Of a stretch of 50,820 nt of DNA, positions 6,161 to 15,477 are shown piece after piece (the first letter of the stretch is position 1; each line of letters begins with the position of its first letter). This DNA comes from a bacterium. GTDB lineage: Bacteria; Patescibacteriota; Minisyncoccia; UBA6257; 02-FULL-45-10c. Location of the stretch: assembly GCA_030646915.1 (NCBI GenBank), contig JAUSKT010000019.1:1-50820 (forward strand). The letters run 5' to 3'. Made by a program: the position numbers and the translations under genes. The notes below the pieces were generated by a model, which was given only the letters and a program-made list of their open reading frames with translations, ran no database searches and was not told the origin of the DNA.

Positions 6161-6180
6161 CCATAAAAATTTTTATGGAT

Positions 6181-6284
6181 CCCGTTAGAAAATTAACAAA
6201 TATGAGTAATTTAACTCAAAATTTACCTACGCATTATCGGAAGTTTTTAGTCGGAAAGATGTTTAATTTAATTTTCTAAACGGG
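6181..6284. mobile_element. MITE-like element on the ligA start codon
   Basis: TIRs cccgttagaaaatta / taattttctaaacggg; ATGGAT directly repeated at 6175-6180 and 6285-6290. Confidence 0.75.
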
Positions 6285-8339
6285 ATGGATAAAAAATCTG
6301 CTGAAGAGCGAATAGAAAAACTTAAAAAAGAAATTGAGAAATACCGGCACGCTTACCATGTTTTGGATAAGTCTTTGATTTCTGATGCCGCTCTGGATTC
6401 CTTGAAAAAGGAACTTTTTGATTTAGAACAGGAATTTCCGGAATTGATTACGCCGGATTCGCCAACTCAGCGCGTGGGCGGAGAACCGCTGAAAGAATTT
6501 AAAAAGGTTAAGCACGAAACGCCGATGATTTCTTTTAATGATGCTTTTTCAAAAGAAGATATGGAAGACTGGCTGGAAAGGATGGAAAATTATTTGGGCC
6601 GGAAAGTAAAATATACTGATAAAACTTTTTATTGCGAATTAAAAATTGATGGCCTGGCAATTGAACTTATTTATGAAAATGGCGTTTTTGTCCGAGGATC
6701 CACTAGGGGAGATGGATTAATTGGGGAAGATGTTACTCAAAATTTAAAAACCGTAGAAGCGATACCCCTTAAATTAGAAGTCCAAAGCCCAAAGTTAAAA
6801 GTTCCGAAGAAATTAGTTGTCCGGGGCGAGGTATTTTTGACTAAAAAAGAATTTGACCGGATTAATAAAGAACAGGAGAAAAAAGGCGGAAAGCCCTACG
6901 CTAATCCCCGCAATGTTGCGGCGGGATCTGTGCGTCAGCTGGATCCGAAGGTTATTGCCGGCAGAAAATTGGATTCTTTCCAGTACGCGGTAATTACCGA
7001 TCTCGGACAAAAATACCACGAAGAAGAGCACGATATTTTAAAATCTTTCGGATTTAAAATTAATTCCCATAATCGCCACGCGGAAAGTTTGGAAGAAGTT
7101 TTTAAATTCCATGAGTATTGGTCAAAAAATCGGGATAAAATTCCATATGAAATAGACGGAATTGTAGTAATGGTTAATGAAAACAAGGATTTTGAAAATG
7201 CGGGCGTTATTGGCAAGGCGCCTCGCGGAGCCATTGCCTTTAAGTTTTCTGCTAAAGAAGCCACCACTATTATAGAAGATATTAAGGTTCAGGTCGGGCG
7301 TACAGGCGTTTTGACTCCGGTAGCGGTTTTAAAGCCGGTTTTAGTCGCGGGCGTGACTATCTCTCATGCCACGCTCCATAATGCTGATGAAATTAAGCGT
7401 TTAGACGCAAGAGTCGGCGATACGGCGATTGTCAGCCGGGCTGGCGATGTTATACCGAAAATCATCAAAGTTTTAAAAGATTTGCGTCCGCGGGGAGCCA
7501 AAGAATTTGAAATGCCCAAAAAATGCCCAATGGATGGCTCGGCAGTTGTGCGGGATGGTGTGGCTTATAAATGTGGAAATAAAAATTGCGGAGCCCGCAA
7601 TCGTGAGAACCTTTATCATTTTGTTTCGCGCGGCGCGTTTAATCTGGAAGGTTTGGGGCCGAAGATTATCGATCATTTTTTGGATGAAGGTTTGATTTCC
7701 GATGCCGCGGATATTTTTACCTTGGAAGAAGGGGATATTAAGGTTTTGGAAAGATTCGGGGAAAAATCCGCAAAAAATATTGTGGAAGAAGTAAATCAGA
7801 AAAAGAAAATAAGTTTATCTAAATTTATTTATAGTCTGGGAATTTTGCATGTCGGGGAAGAAAATTCCAGGCTTTTAGCTAAAAGCATAATGAAAAATGT
7901 AAAAAGTGAAAGAGGACAAATAAAAATTTTAGATATTTTAAATTACTTTGGACATTTAACTTTAGACATTTTACAAACTATTCCCGATATCGGACCTGCA
8001 GTATCCAAAAGCATTTTGGAATATTTTAAAGATGCCCGGCACCAGAATTTGCTGAAGAAATTTGACGAAGTAGGCATAGAGGTAGAAAGTGAAAAGTTAA
8101 ATGTCAAAAGTCAAAAGTTAACTGGACTAAGTTTTGTTTTGACTGGCGGATTGGAATCAATGAGCAGGGAAGCAGCCAAAGAAAAAATCCGCGCTCTTGG
8201 CGGAGATGTAAATGAATCGGTTTCTAAAAATACTTCTTATGTCGTTGCCGGATCTGAAGCAGGCTCGAAATTGGATAAGGCAAAAAAATTAGGAGTAAAA
8301 ATTATAGACGAAAAAGAATTTTTAAAATTGACAAATTAA
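6285..8339 (+). CDS. ligA: NAD-dependent DNA ligase
   Basis: ELKIDG, TRGDG, ANPRN, Cys4 Zn finger, HhH, C-terminal BRCT. Confidence 0.98.
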
Positions 8340-8395
8340 TTTAATAGACGTAAGTTTAGATAAGTATATTTTTAATAACCGCAAAGGAGAGTCAA

Positions 8396-8707
8396 ATGCC
8401 AACGGACGGCGATGATGCTTATGATAAAGAACTGAATAAAAAATATGTAAATAAGTGGGTGCTTTGTCGAAATTTGGAACTCTTTAAAGTGATTGGCTTA
8501 GTTTGGACAACTATGGATCTGTGGGGTGGTCCGATCAATTATGCAAACGTTAATGAGGCTAGAATAGATTGTGTATTTAGTAAAAATGGTACGCTCACAA
8601 GTTTTACAGGAGAAATAAGTTTTATTGTTCATATTTTTGGCGAAGATTATCCTTCAGAAGCAGAAGTGGAGAGTATAAAAAATGAGTATAAAACAAAGGG
8701 GCAATAA
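8396..8707 (+). CDS. Hypothetical protein (stand-alone cassette)
   Basis: 103 aa; AAGGAG SD; TTGACA at the end of ligA; stop inside a hairpin terminator. Confidence 0.6.
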   Translation: MPTDGDDAYDKELNKKYVNKWVLCRNLELFKVIGLVWTTMDLWGGPINYANVNEARIDCVFSKNGTLTSFTGEISFIVHIFGEDYPSEAEVESIKNEYKTKGQ

Positions 8708-8722
8708 AAGCCCCCTTTTTCT
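8695..8722 (+). terminator. Intrinsic terminator
   Basis: aaaggggc-aataaaa-gccccc followed by a T-run. Confidence 0.65.
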
Positions 8723-8751
8723 TTTCATTAAAATTTTCGTATAATTTTAAT

Positions 8752-13429: not shown

Positions 13430-13501
13430 GCCTGTGTAGCTCAGTGGTAGAGCGAGGTCTTCATAAGGCCGAGGTCGCAGGTTCGATCCCTGCCACAGGC
13501 A
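13430..13501 (+). tRNA. tRNA with CAT anticodon (elongator Met or Ile2)
   Basis: gcctgtg/cacaggc acceptor; tagctcagtggtagagc D arm; ttCATaa loop; gcagg-ttcgatc-cctgc. Confidence 0.9.
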
Positions 13502-13545
13502 CATTGAACAAGGCTTTAGGTTGCCTTATAATTTAAAAATCAGAA

Positions 13546-14163
13546 ATGAGGCGTTATTTTGGCACATTGGCAGTTTTAATTTTTTCCGGCATTGGCCTTT
13601 ATTTAGTCTTTAATAAGGAGAATGTTTCCAGCTATCGATTTCCCAACTCCTTAAATTTAAAAGGCCGGGAAATTGTTTCAAATTTGAGGGGTTTTACCAG
13701 CAGTTTAGCGAGCAGCACTCTTGCTGTAACTTCTGGAGCAAAGGATAAATTAATCAGCCAAATCAGCAAAAAAAGTGAAGAGTTATTTTCTAGGGCCGTA
13801 GAAGGGGCAAAGACTCAAGCTTTTAATCTGGTAAAACAGGAGGTCAATAAAAATGTTGATAATTTAGGCCAAAATTTTGGCATTAGCTTAGGGGGCTCTA
13901 ATTCAGAAGTTCCTTCCCCCATAACTTTTGCAATAAAAATTAATCAGCCTGCATATTTTACTGTTAAAAATACCGAATCAACAGCAGTAGAATATGAAAT
14001 AGATTGGCAGGATAATTTAAAGGATAGCGGGCAATTAAGCGCTAACACGGGGAAAACCCTGTCTCATCAATGGAAGAACCCCGGAATTTATGAACCAATA
14101 TTTAAAATTATAAAAAAAGACGGACAATCAGAAGAACACAAAGTAGTTATTTCTATATTTTAA
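13546..14163 (+). CDS. Membrane-anchored protein with C-terminal PKD-like domain
   Basis: N-terminal TM; YEIDWQD...LSHQWKNPGIY. Confidence 0.7.
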   Translation: MRRYFGTLAVLIFSGIGLYLVFNKENVSSYRFPNSLNLKGREIVSNLRGFTSSLASSTLAVTSGAKDKLISQISKKSEELFSRAVEGAKTQAFNLVKQEVNKNVDNLGQNFGISLGGSNSEVPSPITFAIKINQPAYFTVKNTESTAVEYEIDWQDNLKDSGQLSANTGKTLSHQWKNPGIYEPIFKIIKKDGQSEEHKVVISIF

Positions 14164-14169
14164 TTTATG

Positions 14170-14312
14170 CCAGGTAGTAGAACTGCGACTAGAATTTAAC
14201 TAAATCAATTCGCGTTATGTATCTAGATTAAATATGTTGGTATTAATATAATAGTTTGTCATAATTAAATAATGTTAAATTCTGCGAATTGCATCGCAGT
14301 TTCACTACCTGG
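14170..14312. mobile_element. MITE-like element on the pheS start codon (second TIR family)
   Basis: ccaggtagtagaactgcga..agaatttaac / gttaaattct..tcgcagtttcactacctgg; TATG directly repeated at 14166-14169 and 14313-14316. Confidence 0.75.
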
Positions 14313-14313
14313 T

Positions 14314-15477
14314 ATGTTAGAAGATTTAAAAAAACTAAAAACTGAAGCTCAAAAATTCTTAAAAGAAGTTAAAGATTCCAAAGAATTGGAAAATTTGAGA
14401 GTTAAATATTTAGGCAGAAAAGGGGAGCTGAATAAATTTTTTGATGTTTTAAAAAGCCTGTCTCTTGAAGAAAAGCGGAAATTTGCGCCTCCGCTTCAAA
14501 AATTAAAAAAAGAATTGGAAGAAATTTTGGATAAGAAAATTTCTGAACTTAGCCAATCTTTAAAATCTTCCGGCGGATTGGATATTACGATGCCAGGAAA
14601 GAAAATGTCCATGGGGCATTTGCATCCGCTGACAATTGTTGAAAAAGAAATCAGAGAAATTTTTAAAGCAATGAATTTTTCTGTAGTTGAAGGTCCGGAA
14701 GTGGAATCCGAATACTATAATTTTGACGCTTTAAATATTCCCAAAAGCCATCCAGCAAGAGATATGTGGGATACTTTCTGGTTACGAAGTAACCAGAAAC
14801 AATTGACAATTGACAATAAACAAATAACCAGCGGTAAAAGGTCAAATGTCAAAGGTCAAATGTTATTAAGGACTCATACCAGCCCAGTTCAGATCCGATA
14901 CATGGAACAGCATAAGCCCCCATTTCAAATAATTGTTCCCGGCAGAGTATTTCGTTTTGAAGCTACTGATGCCTCCCATGAAATCAATTTTTATCAGGTT
15001 GAGGGCTTAATGGTCGGGAAAGATGTGAATTTAGCGAATTTTAAATTTGTCATCCAGGAATTTTTTCAGAGGCTTTTTAAGAAAAATCTTAAAATCCGGC
15101 TTCGGCCAAGTTACTTTCCATTTGTTGAGCCCGGCTTAGAAGTGGATGTGCAATGCATCAGATGTGAGGGAACTGGAAGATTAGACGGCCCCGTAAAATC
15201 TGCTTCGCAGATCACGGGGCTCACTCAAAAGGGCTTGCCACGAGGGGGCGAAGCCCCTTTTCGTGGCTGTAATCTTTGCAAGGAATCCGGTTGGCTGGAA
15301 GTAATGGGCGCTGGAATGGTTCATCCGAGAGTTTTTGAGTCCGCGGGATATAATCCAAAAGATTTGCAAGGATTTGCTTTTGGTTTGGGATTAGAAAGAA
15401 TCGCCATGATTAAATATAATATTCCAGACATCCGCTTATTTTATTCCGGAGATTTAAGATTTATAAGACAGTTCTAA
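14314..15477 (+). CDS. pheS: Phenylalanyl-tRNA synthetase alpha subunit with two in-frame insertions
   Basis: GHLHP, HPARD, LLRTHTS, FPFVEP, GFAFGLGLER; ATG 14314 preferred because ATG 14272 lies within the MITE. Confidence 0.97.
   Translation: MLEDLKKLKTEAQKFLKEVKDSKELENLRVKYLGRKGELNKFFDVLKSLSLEEKRKFAPPLQKLKKELEEILDKKISELSQSLKSSGGLDITMPGKKMSMGHLHPLTIVEKEIREIFKAMNFSVVEGPEVESEYYNFDALNIPKSHPARDMWDTFWLRSNQKQLTIDNKQITSGKRSNVKGQMLLRTHTSPVQIRYMEQHKPPFQIIVPGRVFRFEATDASHEINFYQVEGLMVGKDVNLANFKFVIQEFFQRLFKKNLKIRLRPSYFPFVEPGLEVDVQCIRCEGTGRLDGPVKSASQITGLTQKGLPRGGEAPFRGCNLCKESGWLEVMGAGMVHPRVFESAGYNPKDLQGFAFGLGLERIAMIKYNIPDIRLFYSGDLRFIRQF

Follow-up and report, generated by a model that had tools for sequence, protein, structure and literature searches.

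How can short repeats settle exactly on the start codons of genes, essential ones among them, in a genome with little room between its genes? The question is raised by a stretch of 50,820 nucleotides (nt) of a patescibacterial genome (the window: contig JAUSKT010000019.1 of assembly GCA_030646915.1), for which an earlier note had described three elements that look like MITEs (miniature transposable elements with inverted repeats), each lying directly before the ATG of a gene. The assembly comprises 598,955 bp in 22 contigs with 39% G+C and is 77% complete; the window is its contig 14, and about 84% of the genome is open reading frame (ORF). We refer to this assembly as G000, to its relatives by other G numbers, and to contigs by C numbers. 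Gene names in the window were verified by Pfam, and the genes, elements, and duplications located there lie on the plus strand.

Our reading, to which we assign a probability of roughly 0.8, is that these elements are gene-less, MITE-like derivatives of a micro-element encoding a GIY-YIG nuclease, that they are coupled to the genes at whose starts they sit, and that weak targeting together with selection put them there.

Three Elements on Start Codons

All three elements were found in the places described, with gaps of 0–1 nt to the following ATG, and the flanking repeats that had been read at two of them, ATGGAT at ligA and TATG at pheS, are both present in the sequence. Element 1 (6181–6284, plus strand; 104 nt) is a gene-less copy of what we designate family A, subtype A1, and is one of 28 aligned A1 copies. 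It sits on the start codon of ligA, the gene for the NAD-dependent DNA ligase (6285–8339, plus strand), whose first bases, ATGGAT (6285–6290), are the downstream copy of the duplication. Its ends are CCCGTTAGAAAATTAA..TTAATTTTCTAAACGGG, and the terminal repeats pair as a stem of 16–18 nt. The upstream ATGGAT (6175–6180, plus strand) opens an ORF that runs through the element: starting from the ATG at 6175, it extends over 34 codons to a TAA at 6277–6279, 5 nt short of the ligA ATG.

Element 2 (10516–10636, plus strand; 121 nt), a gene-less family-A copy of subtype A2, lies between a gatA-like amidase gene and the next gene and is bounded by a perfect 15-nt inverted repeat (ATCCCGTTAGAGACA/TGTCTCTAACGGGAT). 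The gap to the ATG at 10637 is 0 nt, and the flanking duplication consists of nothing more than AT. An internal ATG at 10537 opens an ORF of 31 codons ending with a TAA at 10630–10632, 4 nt short of the host ATG. At the other end, a TAG within the left terminal repeat (10521–10523, plus strand) is the stop of the amidase ORF (9042–10523): the native stop of the relatives, a TAA after ...YYE-xL, has been lost, and the TAG of the repeat took over. The host gene 3' of the element (10637–11278, plus strand) encodes 213 amino acids without a Pfam family and begins ATGGCAGGA.

Element 3 (14170–14312, plus strand; 143 nt) is a gene-less copy of a second family, B, with the ends CCAGGTAGT..ACTACCTGG, and sits on the start codon of pheS. 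It is flanked by a 4-nt duplication, with the upstream TATG at 14166–14169 (plus strand) and the downstream TATG leading into pheS (14313–15477, plus strand; ATG at 14314). An ATG at 14272, in the 3' part of the element, begins a stretch that stays open in the pheS frame (14272–14313), and a mechanical ORF call starts pheS at this position, adding 14 codons; inserts of this kind mislead start-site annotation.

Single-strand folding gives the terminal stem in all three elements (z = −3.6, −4.4, and −5.4), which 0 of 200 shuffles equal. The idea that such elements colonize a genome with little intergenic space while preserving the ATG fits this arrangement, in which the duplication rebuilds an ATG downstream.

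Placement of Family A across the Genome

Family-A copies were collected from the whole assembly by blastn with ten representatives, and their ends were then refined by hand. The stop-containing copies comprise the AT-rich subtypes A1 (28 copies, 100–104 nt), A1b (3 copies, 106–107 nt), and A2 (6 copies, 118–121 nt), as well as subtype A4 (4 copies, 114–117 nt); the inventory is completed by 16 GC-rich copies of 45–75 nt and one long copy of 381 nt. Family B is represented by 4 complete copies of 78–143 nt. Both families are short, multi-copy, and bounded by terminal inverted repeats, as is characteristic of MITEs.

When oriented by their interior sequence, 40 of the 41 stop-containing family-A copies have a right flank that begins with ATG. 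The ORFs opened by these abutting ATGs range from 37 to 887 codons with a median of 280 (C20:8909 lies at a contig end), and the only copy without an abutting ATG, C22:4645, is located 15 nt upstream of another copy which does abut one. Relative to the gene, the copies of any one subtype all point the same way. By comparison, a random position and strand preceded such an ATG in 0.36% of trials, and a model with equal use of all non-coding TNNA sites and all ATGNA starts puts 3.0% of copies at starts. The association with start codons is genome-wide by either measure; copies are neither randomly placed relative to ATGs nor confined to the window.

The 28 aligned A1 copies have a median identity of 90% to their consensus, and the most similar pair, located at two different genes, reaches 98%. 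Their best-conserved parts are the terminal stem and an internal hairpin region. We also observed one tandem arrangement (C22:4645–4882), in which an A2 copy is followed after 15 nt by an A1 copy upstream of a single gene beginning ATGGCA.

Nuclease-Bearing Long Copies

The earlier note had seen no transposase in the window. This holds for five classical Pfam families, DDE_Tnp_1 (PF01609), rve (PF00665), DDE_3 (PF13358), Y1_Tnp (PF01797), and the TnpB-type PF07282, which are absent from the 77% complete assembly. It needs amendment for the GIY-YIG domain (PF01541), which has five matches in the assembly, one of them in an 85-residue single-domain gene of the element-borne type in the window, between two tRNA genes (13080–13337, plus strand).

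Long copies with the same terminal repeats enclosing a gene, which the earlier note had thought worth seeking, exist for both families, and the enclosed gene is a GIY-YIG nuclease in each. The family-A copy (C6:92329–92709; PF01541 match at C6:92453–92656, 70.8 bits) measures 279 bp once a nested A1 copy is subtracted, with the host flanks ATGAAAT on the left and ATGAAAC on the right. Its nuclease of 86 residues reads through the right repeat (..RFLSLTG), and the TGA stop overlaps the host ATG. The nested gene-less A1 copy sits exactly on the nuclease's own ATG, so that the host's parasite has likewise been parasitized. The long copies of family B are located at two contig ends, both with a PF01541 match, where the elements have broken the assembly; combined, they read TATG, then CCAGGAAGT..ATG..nuclease..TAA..ACTTCCTGG, then TATG. 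Because the long copies of both families carry a GIY-YIG nuclease of one kind and of about 86 residues, families A and B are not unrelated in origin. The distinction of two families with different repeats, both on ATGs, thus stands, and the view that they are unrelated does not.

The 85-residue protein of the window and the 86-residue family-A protein match PF01541 with 70 and 71.5 bits over residues 1–73 and 1–69, respectively, and are 40% identical to each other. NCBIfam contains no specific family for the nuclease; its group I intron endonuclease model matches with 18.8–22.3 bits, below the cut-off of 56. Family-A and family-B termini are absent from the 13080–13337 gene. A 20-nt inverted repeat of 95% identity (13100–13119/13332–13351) is present there, with its left arm in codons 7–13 and its right arm over the stop codon; a third element family defined by this repeat was considered and dropped, as the repeat is unique in the genome. 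Another PF01541 match, at C6:100566–100772, belongs to a more distant GIY-YIG homologue of 87 residues on the minus strand (C6:100450–100900). It is followed by a tRNA-like sequence (..GGGGTTCGATTCC), and the approximately 15 nt before it resemble the 5' end of that tRNA, a hint that it was inserted at or within a tRNA gene. A 284-nt candidate with one-mismatch termini (C8:84173–84456) was rejected as a chance pair without a nuclease ORF.

A Relic ORF in Gene-Less Copies

Subtypes A1, A1b, and A2 retain the first codons of the nuclease, M-F-(Y/I/K)-(I/Y).., at position 22. In 33 of their 37 copies this relic ORF has 24–31 codons and ends at the TAA of the right repeat, 4–5 nt before the host ATG; counted from the upstream ATG at −6, it has 33–40 codons in the same frame. 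The relic ORF is intact in 27 of the 28 A1 copies. Placing the observed substitutions of each copy at random gives an expectation of 14.3, and 0 of 200,000 simulations reach 27. This retention, and the position of the stop, suggests translational coupling between the relic ORF and the host gene.

Codistribution of Repeats and Nuclease in the Order

To see how far the design extends, we scanned 301 genomes of the same order for the family-A repeat pair CCCGTTAGA..TCTAACGGG, with the reversed pattern as a control. The pair occurs in 131 of the 301, with 0–35 copies in each genome, and the control gave 0 matches in all 301; across the order, the termini are conserved as exact 9-mers. Surveys of 151 genomes each found family B in 16 and the nuclease in 116, the latter with up to 11 matches. 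Among G001–G161, all 16 genomes with at least ten repeat pairs carry the nuclease.

We read 29 nuclease loci from 29 other genomes, and 25 of them have recognizable termini, which are 264–311 bp and mostly 273–285 bp apart. Of these 25 elements, 19 have a nuclease ORF whose TGA stop overlaps the host ATG, 18 have a host ORF of at least 139 codons, and 14 have ATGAAT as the left flank. A flank ATG is present in 19; it is in frame with the nuclease in 9 and is the sole in-frame start in 4. An ATG of the element's own, 14–34 nt inside, is found in 21. Twenty-nine short family-A elements, each from a different one of 29 other genomes, were also read. Of the 16 that are long and AT-rich, about 10 are located on an ATG with a duplication; those that are GC-rich are found in ORFs or at sites like GTTGAC, GTCCAC, and ATAAAT. 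The association with start codons therefore extends across the order.

Empty Sites

Orthologous sites in other genera are empty for all three elements. At ligA, the DNA match starts exactly at the ATG in several relatives, all six orthologues read begin there, and the site in G010 (...tttatATGGATAAAAAAGAA) is without the element. Between the amidase gene and the next one, G008 has a compact junction (...TACGAACGTTTATAAATTTTATGGCGGGACC), and the site is likewise empty in G009, G011, G003, G006, and G019; pheS has no family-B element upstream in 7 relatives. For related strains we turned to the Logan contigs of two groundwater runs, none of which bridges an empty ligA or amidase site. One related-strain contig (run X2, the second groundwater run) joins 14164 to 14314 and so is without the pheS copy, at a depth of 4, which makes it weak; it is the sole related-strain case, the rest of the comparison being with other genera. 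Judged from these alignments, the three window copies are insertions relative to the orthologous sites in other genera, and the mobile nature proposed for them is supported by the empty sites together with the depth-4 contig.

The amidase/next-gene site is occupied too in G005, a member of a different genus (L055, C7 ~65,070–65,250), with identical flanks (gaaaaattat on the left, ATGGCA on the right). The termini of this element are common with those of 10516–10636 and the interiors are unrelated; the shared site could reflect an old insertion that later received a new interior, or else a hot spot that is hit recurrently.

Target Preference or Selection

Of the 41 family-A copies, 27 have the upstream ATG at −6, 3 have it at −7, and 2 at −5. 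Nucleotides 4–5 of the left and right repeats match in 26 of 27 copies (AA in 15, GA in 9, AG in 2); shuffling gives a mean of 12.0, and 0 of 100,000 shuffles reach 26. Because these nucleotides co-vary, the flanking repeat is truly duplicated host sequence and does not belong to the element. No single fixed length describes the duplications of family A, as models of 2 nt (AT..AT), 4 nt (T..A), and 6 nt (CCCG..CGGG ends) each fail in some copies; for this reason we give a TNNA core with apparent repeats of 4–6 nt. In other genomes, most of the 15 family-B elements read have a flush 4-nt duplication, mostly TATN: it is TATG in 6, with TATA, TATC, ATAA, and TTTT among the others.

The GC-rich copies are 45, 48, 66, 69, or 75 nt long, plus one of 70 nt, and at least 11 of the 16 lie within long ORFs whose frame they leave open. 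From the translations we take their hosts to be a class II aldolase, Fpg, KsgA, a XerC/D-type recombinase, a GrpE-like protein, an M23 peptidase, a membrane protein, and, with two copies, an aspartokinase-homoserine dehydrogenase. Copies of variant G48 are always translated as PVRG(R/S)EG..ASNG, and those of variant G66 as (I/V)PLETARP.GP.GAQARA.SLTG. Seven of the 16 have clean duplications with a TNNA core and six show none; the copy in KsgA has ATGAAT on both sides, at an internal Met-Asn. Such placements indicate that the element-borne machinery itself probably does not need an ATG. As the GC-rich variants sit inside genes at TNNA-type sites, the start-codon pattern probably reflects a weak target preference combined with strong selection. 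A filter acting after insertion is favored since the registers differ (A|TGNA vs. TATG), since non-ATG sites are used, and since stop-free variants are found within genes.

The strongest competitor is true start-codon targeting, in which the machinery would recognize ATGRA(T), or microhomology between donor and target would guide a copy-in repair, with selection playing a minor part. Several observations speak for it: the 40 of 41 copies at starts far exceed the 3% expected even when all non-coding TNNA sites are allowed; the internal Met-Asn of KsgA has received a GC-rich copy with a full ATGAAT duplication; and ATGAAT is the left flank of 14 of the 25 full-length elements, in different genera. 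Duplications varying between 3 and 6 nt suit microhomology better than a fixed staggered cut, and the fixed orientation would follow from directional microhomology. We nevertheless consider it unlikely, if not to the point of dismissal. Sites other than ATG are occupied by GC-rich copies and by several AT-rich copies in other genomes, the duplications there including TCAA, TTGA, TTTA, TTAA, and GTCCAC, and family B uses the other register (TATG, and also TATA, TATC, ATAA, and TTTT). That the two families come to the ATG by way of different target cores suggests a filter common to both, not a recognition common to both. The earlier note had left the choice between a start-codon-targeting mobile system and strong selection; the elements are indeed copies of a mobile element and start-associated, with targeting probably reduced to a weak preference and selection the stronger force.

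A promoter-based form of targeting fares no better. Throughout the genome, Shine-Dalgarno motifs are scarce upstream of 366–370 confidently placed starts, and TATAAT boxes are most frequent 6–7 nt before the ATG; in view of this peak, a sizeable class of genes is probably leaderless. Targeting of the promoter bubble, or of leaderless transcription starts, was rejected as a general explanation on the counts of −10-like boxes: a box at leaderless spacing is found in 12 of 41 element-bearing genes versus 59 of 366 (about 16%) element-free genes, scored in the latter as TATAAT with at most 1 mismatch ending 6–7 nt before the ATG. The ligA and amidase-downstream sites have no −10-like box within 46 nt upstream and lie at most 20 nt behind the preceding gene, and are for these reasons taken to be inside operons.

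A fourth small insert in the window has to be added to the three described by the earlier note. It is a GC-rich, in-frame insert of 60 nt in the amidase gene (10372–10431, plus strand), outside families A and B, identical to G000:C15:17410–17469, and skipped by the relatives' DNA matches to this gene. It is flanked by short repeats of the GTCAAA(T/A)GTCAAA type and adds ..SNVKGPAEGEARQGRQMSK.. to the protein. A short heptamer repeat of the GTCAAA(A/T) type recurs in coding regions, namely in pheS (window 14841–14857) and at several loci on C15, C10, and C11, and is also found in the amidase-gene loop of relatives (..KSKVKSQKSKV.. in G004).

A Proposed Mechanism

In our proposal, the three elements came by deletion from a micro-element, mostly of 273–285 bp, and are non-autonomous. 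The design of that micro-element is seen in the sequence: its sole gene is that of a single-domain GIY-YIG nuclease of 84–90 residues, and the element is almost entirely coding. Inverted repeats of 12–16 nt bound the complete element; they read (A/G)(T/C)CCCGTTAGAG... for family A and CCAGG(A/T)AGT... for family B. In family A, the last seven codons of the nuclease are the right repeat, and its stop is mostly a TGA formed with the host ATG (ATGA). Insertion duplicates 4–6 nt, with the core TNNA (A) or TATN (B). On a start codon, one ATG then stays with the upstream signals of the host and a second is rebuilt at the far end. Ribosomes might initiate on the upstream ATG or on the one that the element itself has about 20 nt inside, producing the nuclease or, in gene-less copies, the peptide of the relic ORF; they would stop on the host ATG or 4–5 nt before it and re-initiate, and the essential gene would stay expressed. 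By analogy with the Ssn system discussed below, the nuclease may recognize the stem of the two repeats in single-stranded DNA and mobilize full and gene-less copies in trans. AT-rich, stop-containing copies would survive only where the coupling works, and GC-rich, stop-free copies of 45–75 nt would survive in frame within genes.

Several points weigh against this proposal. GIY-YIG enzymes hydrolyze DNA and form no covalent intermediate. Among solved structures, those closest to the nuclease belong to the UPF0213 proteins 1ywl and 1zg2 (E = 8e-8 and 3e-7). The assembly has only one complete family-A nuclease copy, in which the nested A1 separates the nuclease start from its upstream signals, and family B is without the stop/start overlap. 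The coupling is deduced from geometry only; the four A4 copies have no through-ORF, and the ORF-retention test overstates independence because the copies share ancestry. The duplications of family A are uneven, with lengths of 0, 3, 4, 5, or 6 nt; 9 of the 41 start-codon copies are without an upstream ATG, 5 of these having the right flank ATGGC; and only 7 of the 16 GC-rich copies have a clean 4–5-nt duplication.

A bolder version of the proposal, which we advance tentatively and at somewhat less than even odds, is that the ~86-residue nuclease and two 12–16-nt repeats constitute a complete autonomous transposon of ~275 bp, of a new mechanistic class and among the smallest known. It would spread through ultra-small bacteria by seizing host start codons, with the initiation signals of the host serving its own nuclease and the stop/start overlap returning the ribosome, and its gene-less and in-frame derivatives would have reshaped essential genes throughout the order, at their 5' ends and in their loops.

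A second alternative is that the elements are regulatory modules of the host: domesticated 5' leader cassettes, in which the short ORF and hairpin tune translation or mRNA stability. Such a role would agree with a short ORF held open in 27 of 28 copies against 14.3 expected, with the conservation in A1 of the terminal stem and internal hairpin region above all else, and with the occupation of the amidase/next-gene site in two genera. It also has a precedent in the Correia elements, which are cut by RNase III and alter expression according to the available text of a review (PMC10969869). It sits poorly with most orthologous genes of the relatives, which are without elements, with host genes as functionally unrelated as a ligase, a synthetase, and many others, with copy numbers that range from 0 to 35 among genomes of one order, with identities of up to 98% between copies at different genes, and with a parent element that encodes a nuclease. 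Rfam at gathering threshold returned three tRNAs for the whole window and no family at the elements. We regard domesticated leader cassettes as improbable.

That the elements are ordinary MITEs of a classical DDE or HUH insertion sequence located in the unassembled part of a 77% complete genome, with the GIY-YIG gene as a passenger, is very improbable: terminal inverted repeats and 4-nt duplications are typical of DDE elements, but the five transposase and TnpB-type domains are absent from the assembly, 25 of 29 loci enclose the nuclease ORF alone within 264–311 bp, the right repeat encodes the nuclease C-terminus, and the gene-less copies keep its first codons (MF(Y/I)(I/Y)..).

If gene-less derivatives of a GIY-YIG micro-element are indeed what we see, mobile DNA has colonized a compact genome at the sole position that tolerates a stop-laden insert, repaying its host by translational coupling, and a transposition-like process would be carried out by a GIY-YIG hydrolase instead of a DDE, HUH, serine, or tyrosine enzyme. 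The pairs of nuclease and repeat would also be candidate sequence-specific tools for single-stranded DNA.

Comparison with Known Systems

GIY-YIG homing endonucleases such as I-TevI and the Seg proteins have a catalytic domain that drives the spread of its own gene, as is proposed here. They have a long DNA-binding domain and home to one cognate allele by recombination, and we know of no terminal repeats, duplications, or dispersed gene-less copies associated with them. In REP/REPIN systems with a RAYT, an IS200/IS605-like Y1 enzyme, a small enzyme acts on hairpins of single-stranded DNA and maintains short, palindromic, non-autonomous repeats. The enzymes differ: that of the REPINs is of the HUH/Y1 type and works through a covalent intermediate, whereas here it is a GIY-YIG protein, and the genome contains no Y1_Tnp. 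REPINs are moreover extragenic and without target duplication. The discussion of the Ssn study cites these systems (PMC11893778).

Correia elements are located between genes or in untranslated regions, and their target duplication is TA; to our knowledge they have no parent and are not placed on an ATG in fixed orientation with a coupled ORF. The family members described here share with these Correia/NEMIS elements of Neisseria a length of 100–150 bp, terminal inverted repeats, a short duplication, many copies near genes, and hairpin transcripts, as far as they are described in the available text of the review (PMC10969869). In the part searched, the terms "start codon", "GIY-YIG", and "Patescibacteria" do not occur in this text, which is a review of prokaryotic MITEs from 2024 (PMC10969869).

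A palindromic sequence inserted in frame in coding genes is the mark of the Rickettsia palindromic elements (RPEs), and among our elements it is found in the GC-rich class only, not in the three window elements. RPEs are ~100–150 bp long; the GC-rich copies, at 45–75 nt (the Fpg copy is of variant G69), are all shorter. We know of no enzyme that mobilizes RPEs and of no counterpart to the start-codon class among them. Like RPEs, the GC-rich variants are palindromic, lie in frame in unrelated housekeeping genes, and add a short hydrophilic peptide, to follow the account in the available review text (PMC10969869). A link between RPEs and the GC-rich variants is possible; Rickettsia is also listed among repeat-rich genomes in the accessible text of the Ssn study (PMC11893778).

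The Ssn system is the nearest relative in kind. SsnA, as described in the available text, is a GIY-YIG enzyme of 94 residues that cleaves single-stranded DNA next to a hairpin repeat, and repeats of this kind lie on both sides of its gene (Chenal et al. 2025, PMC11893778); it also cuts a stem re-formed from two separate strands (PMC11893778). The authors liken NTS-ssnA-NTS to an insertion sequence and, in that text, read the system as a domesticated regulator of transformation (PMC11893778). Three likenesses can be drawn from the same source: a single-domain GIY-YIG protein of ~90 residues (85 and 86 here), a gene flanked on both sides by a dispersed hairpin-forming repeat with tens to hundreds of copies, and the style of the repeat core, which is ATTCCCGCG..CGCGGGAAT in Ssn and ATCCCGTTAGAG..CTCTAACGGGAT here (PMC11893778). 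The Ssn repeat is a self-contained hairpin of ~28 nt around genes (PMC11893778), whereas the half-sites here end an insert of ~45–285 bp with target duplication. In contrast to Ssn as it is described there, the inserts here occupy start codons or lie in frame within genes, and the nuclease ORF has its stop, and in some cases also its start, in common with the host gene. The article's text without its supplements has 0 occurrences of "start codon" or "Patescibacteria" in the part searched (PMC11893778). The elements described here would provide a concrete, testable natural case for the hypothesis raised on Ssn/NTS systems, as worded in the available text (PMC11893778).

A full-text search of the literature found no description of GIY-YIG micro-elements or of MITEs on start codons, the Ssn system being the closest. 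The elements of the window belong to a widespread family that is closest in kind to MITEs and to Ssn-like hairpin-repeat systems, and it is set apart from both by its placement on start codons, by the stop and start codons it shares with its hosts, and by the short ORF that is probably coupled to the host gene.

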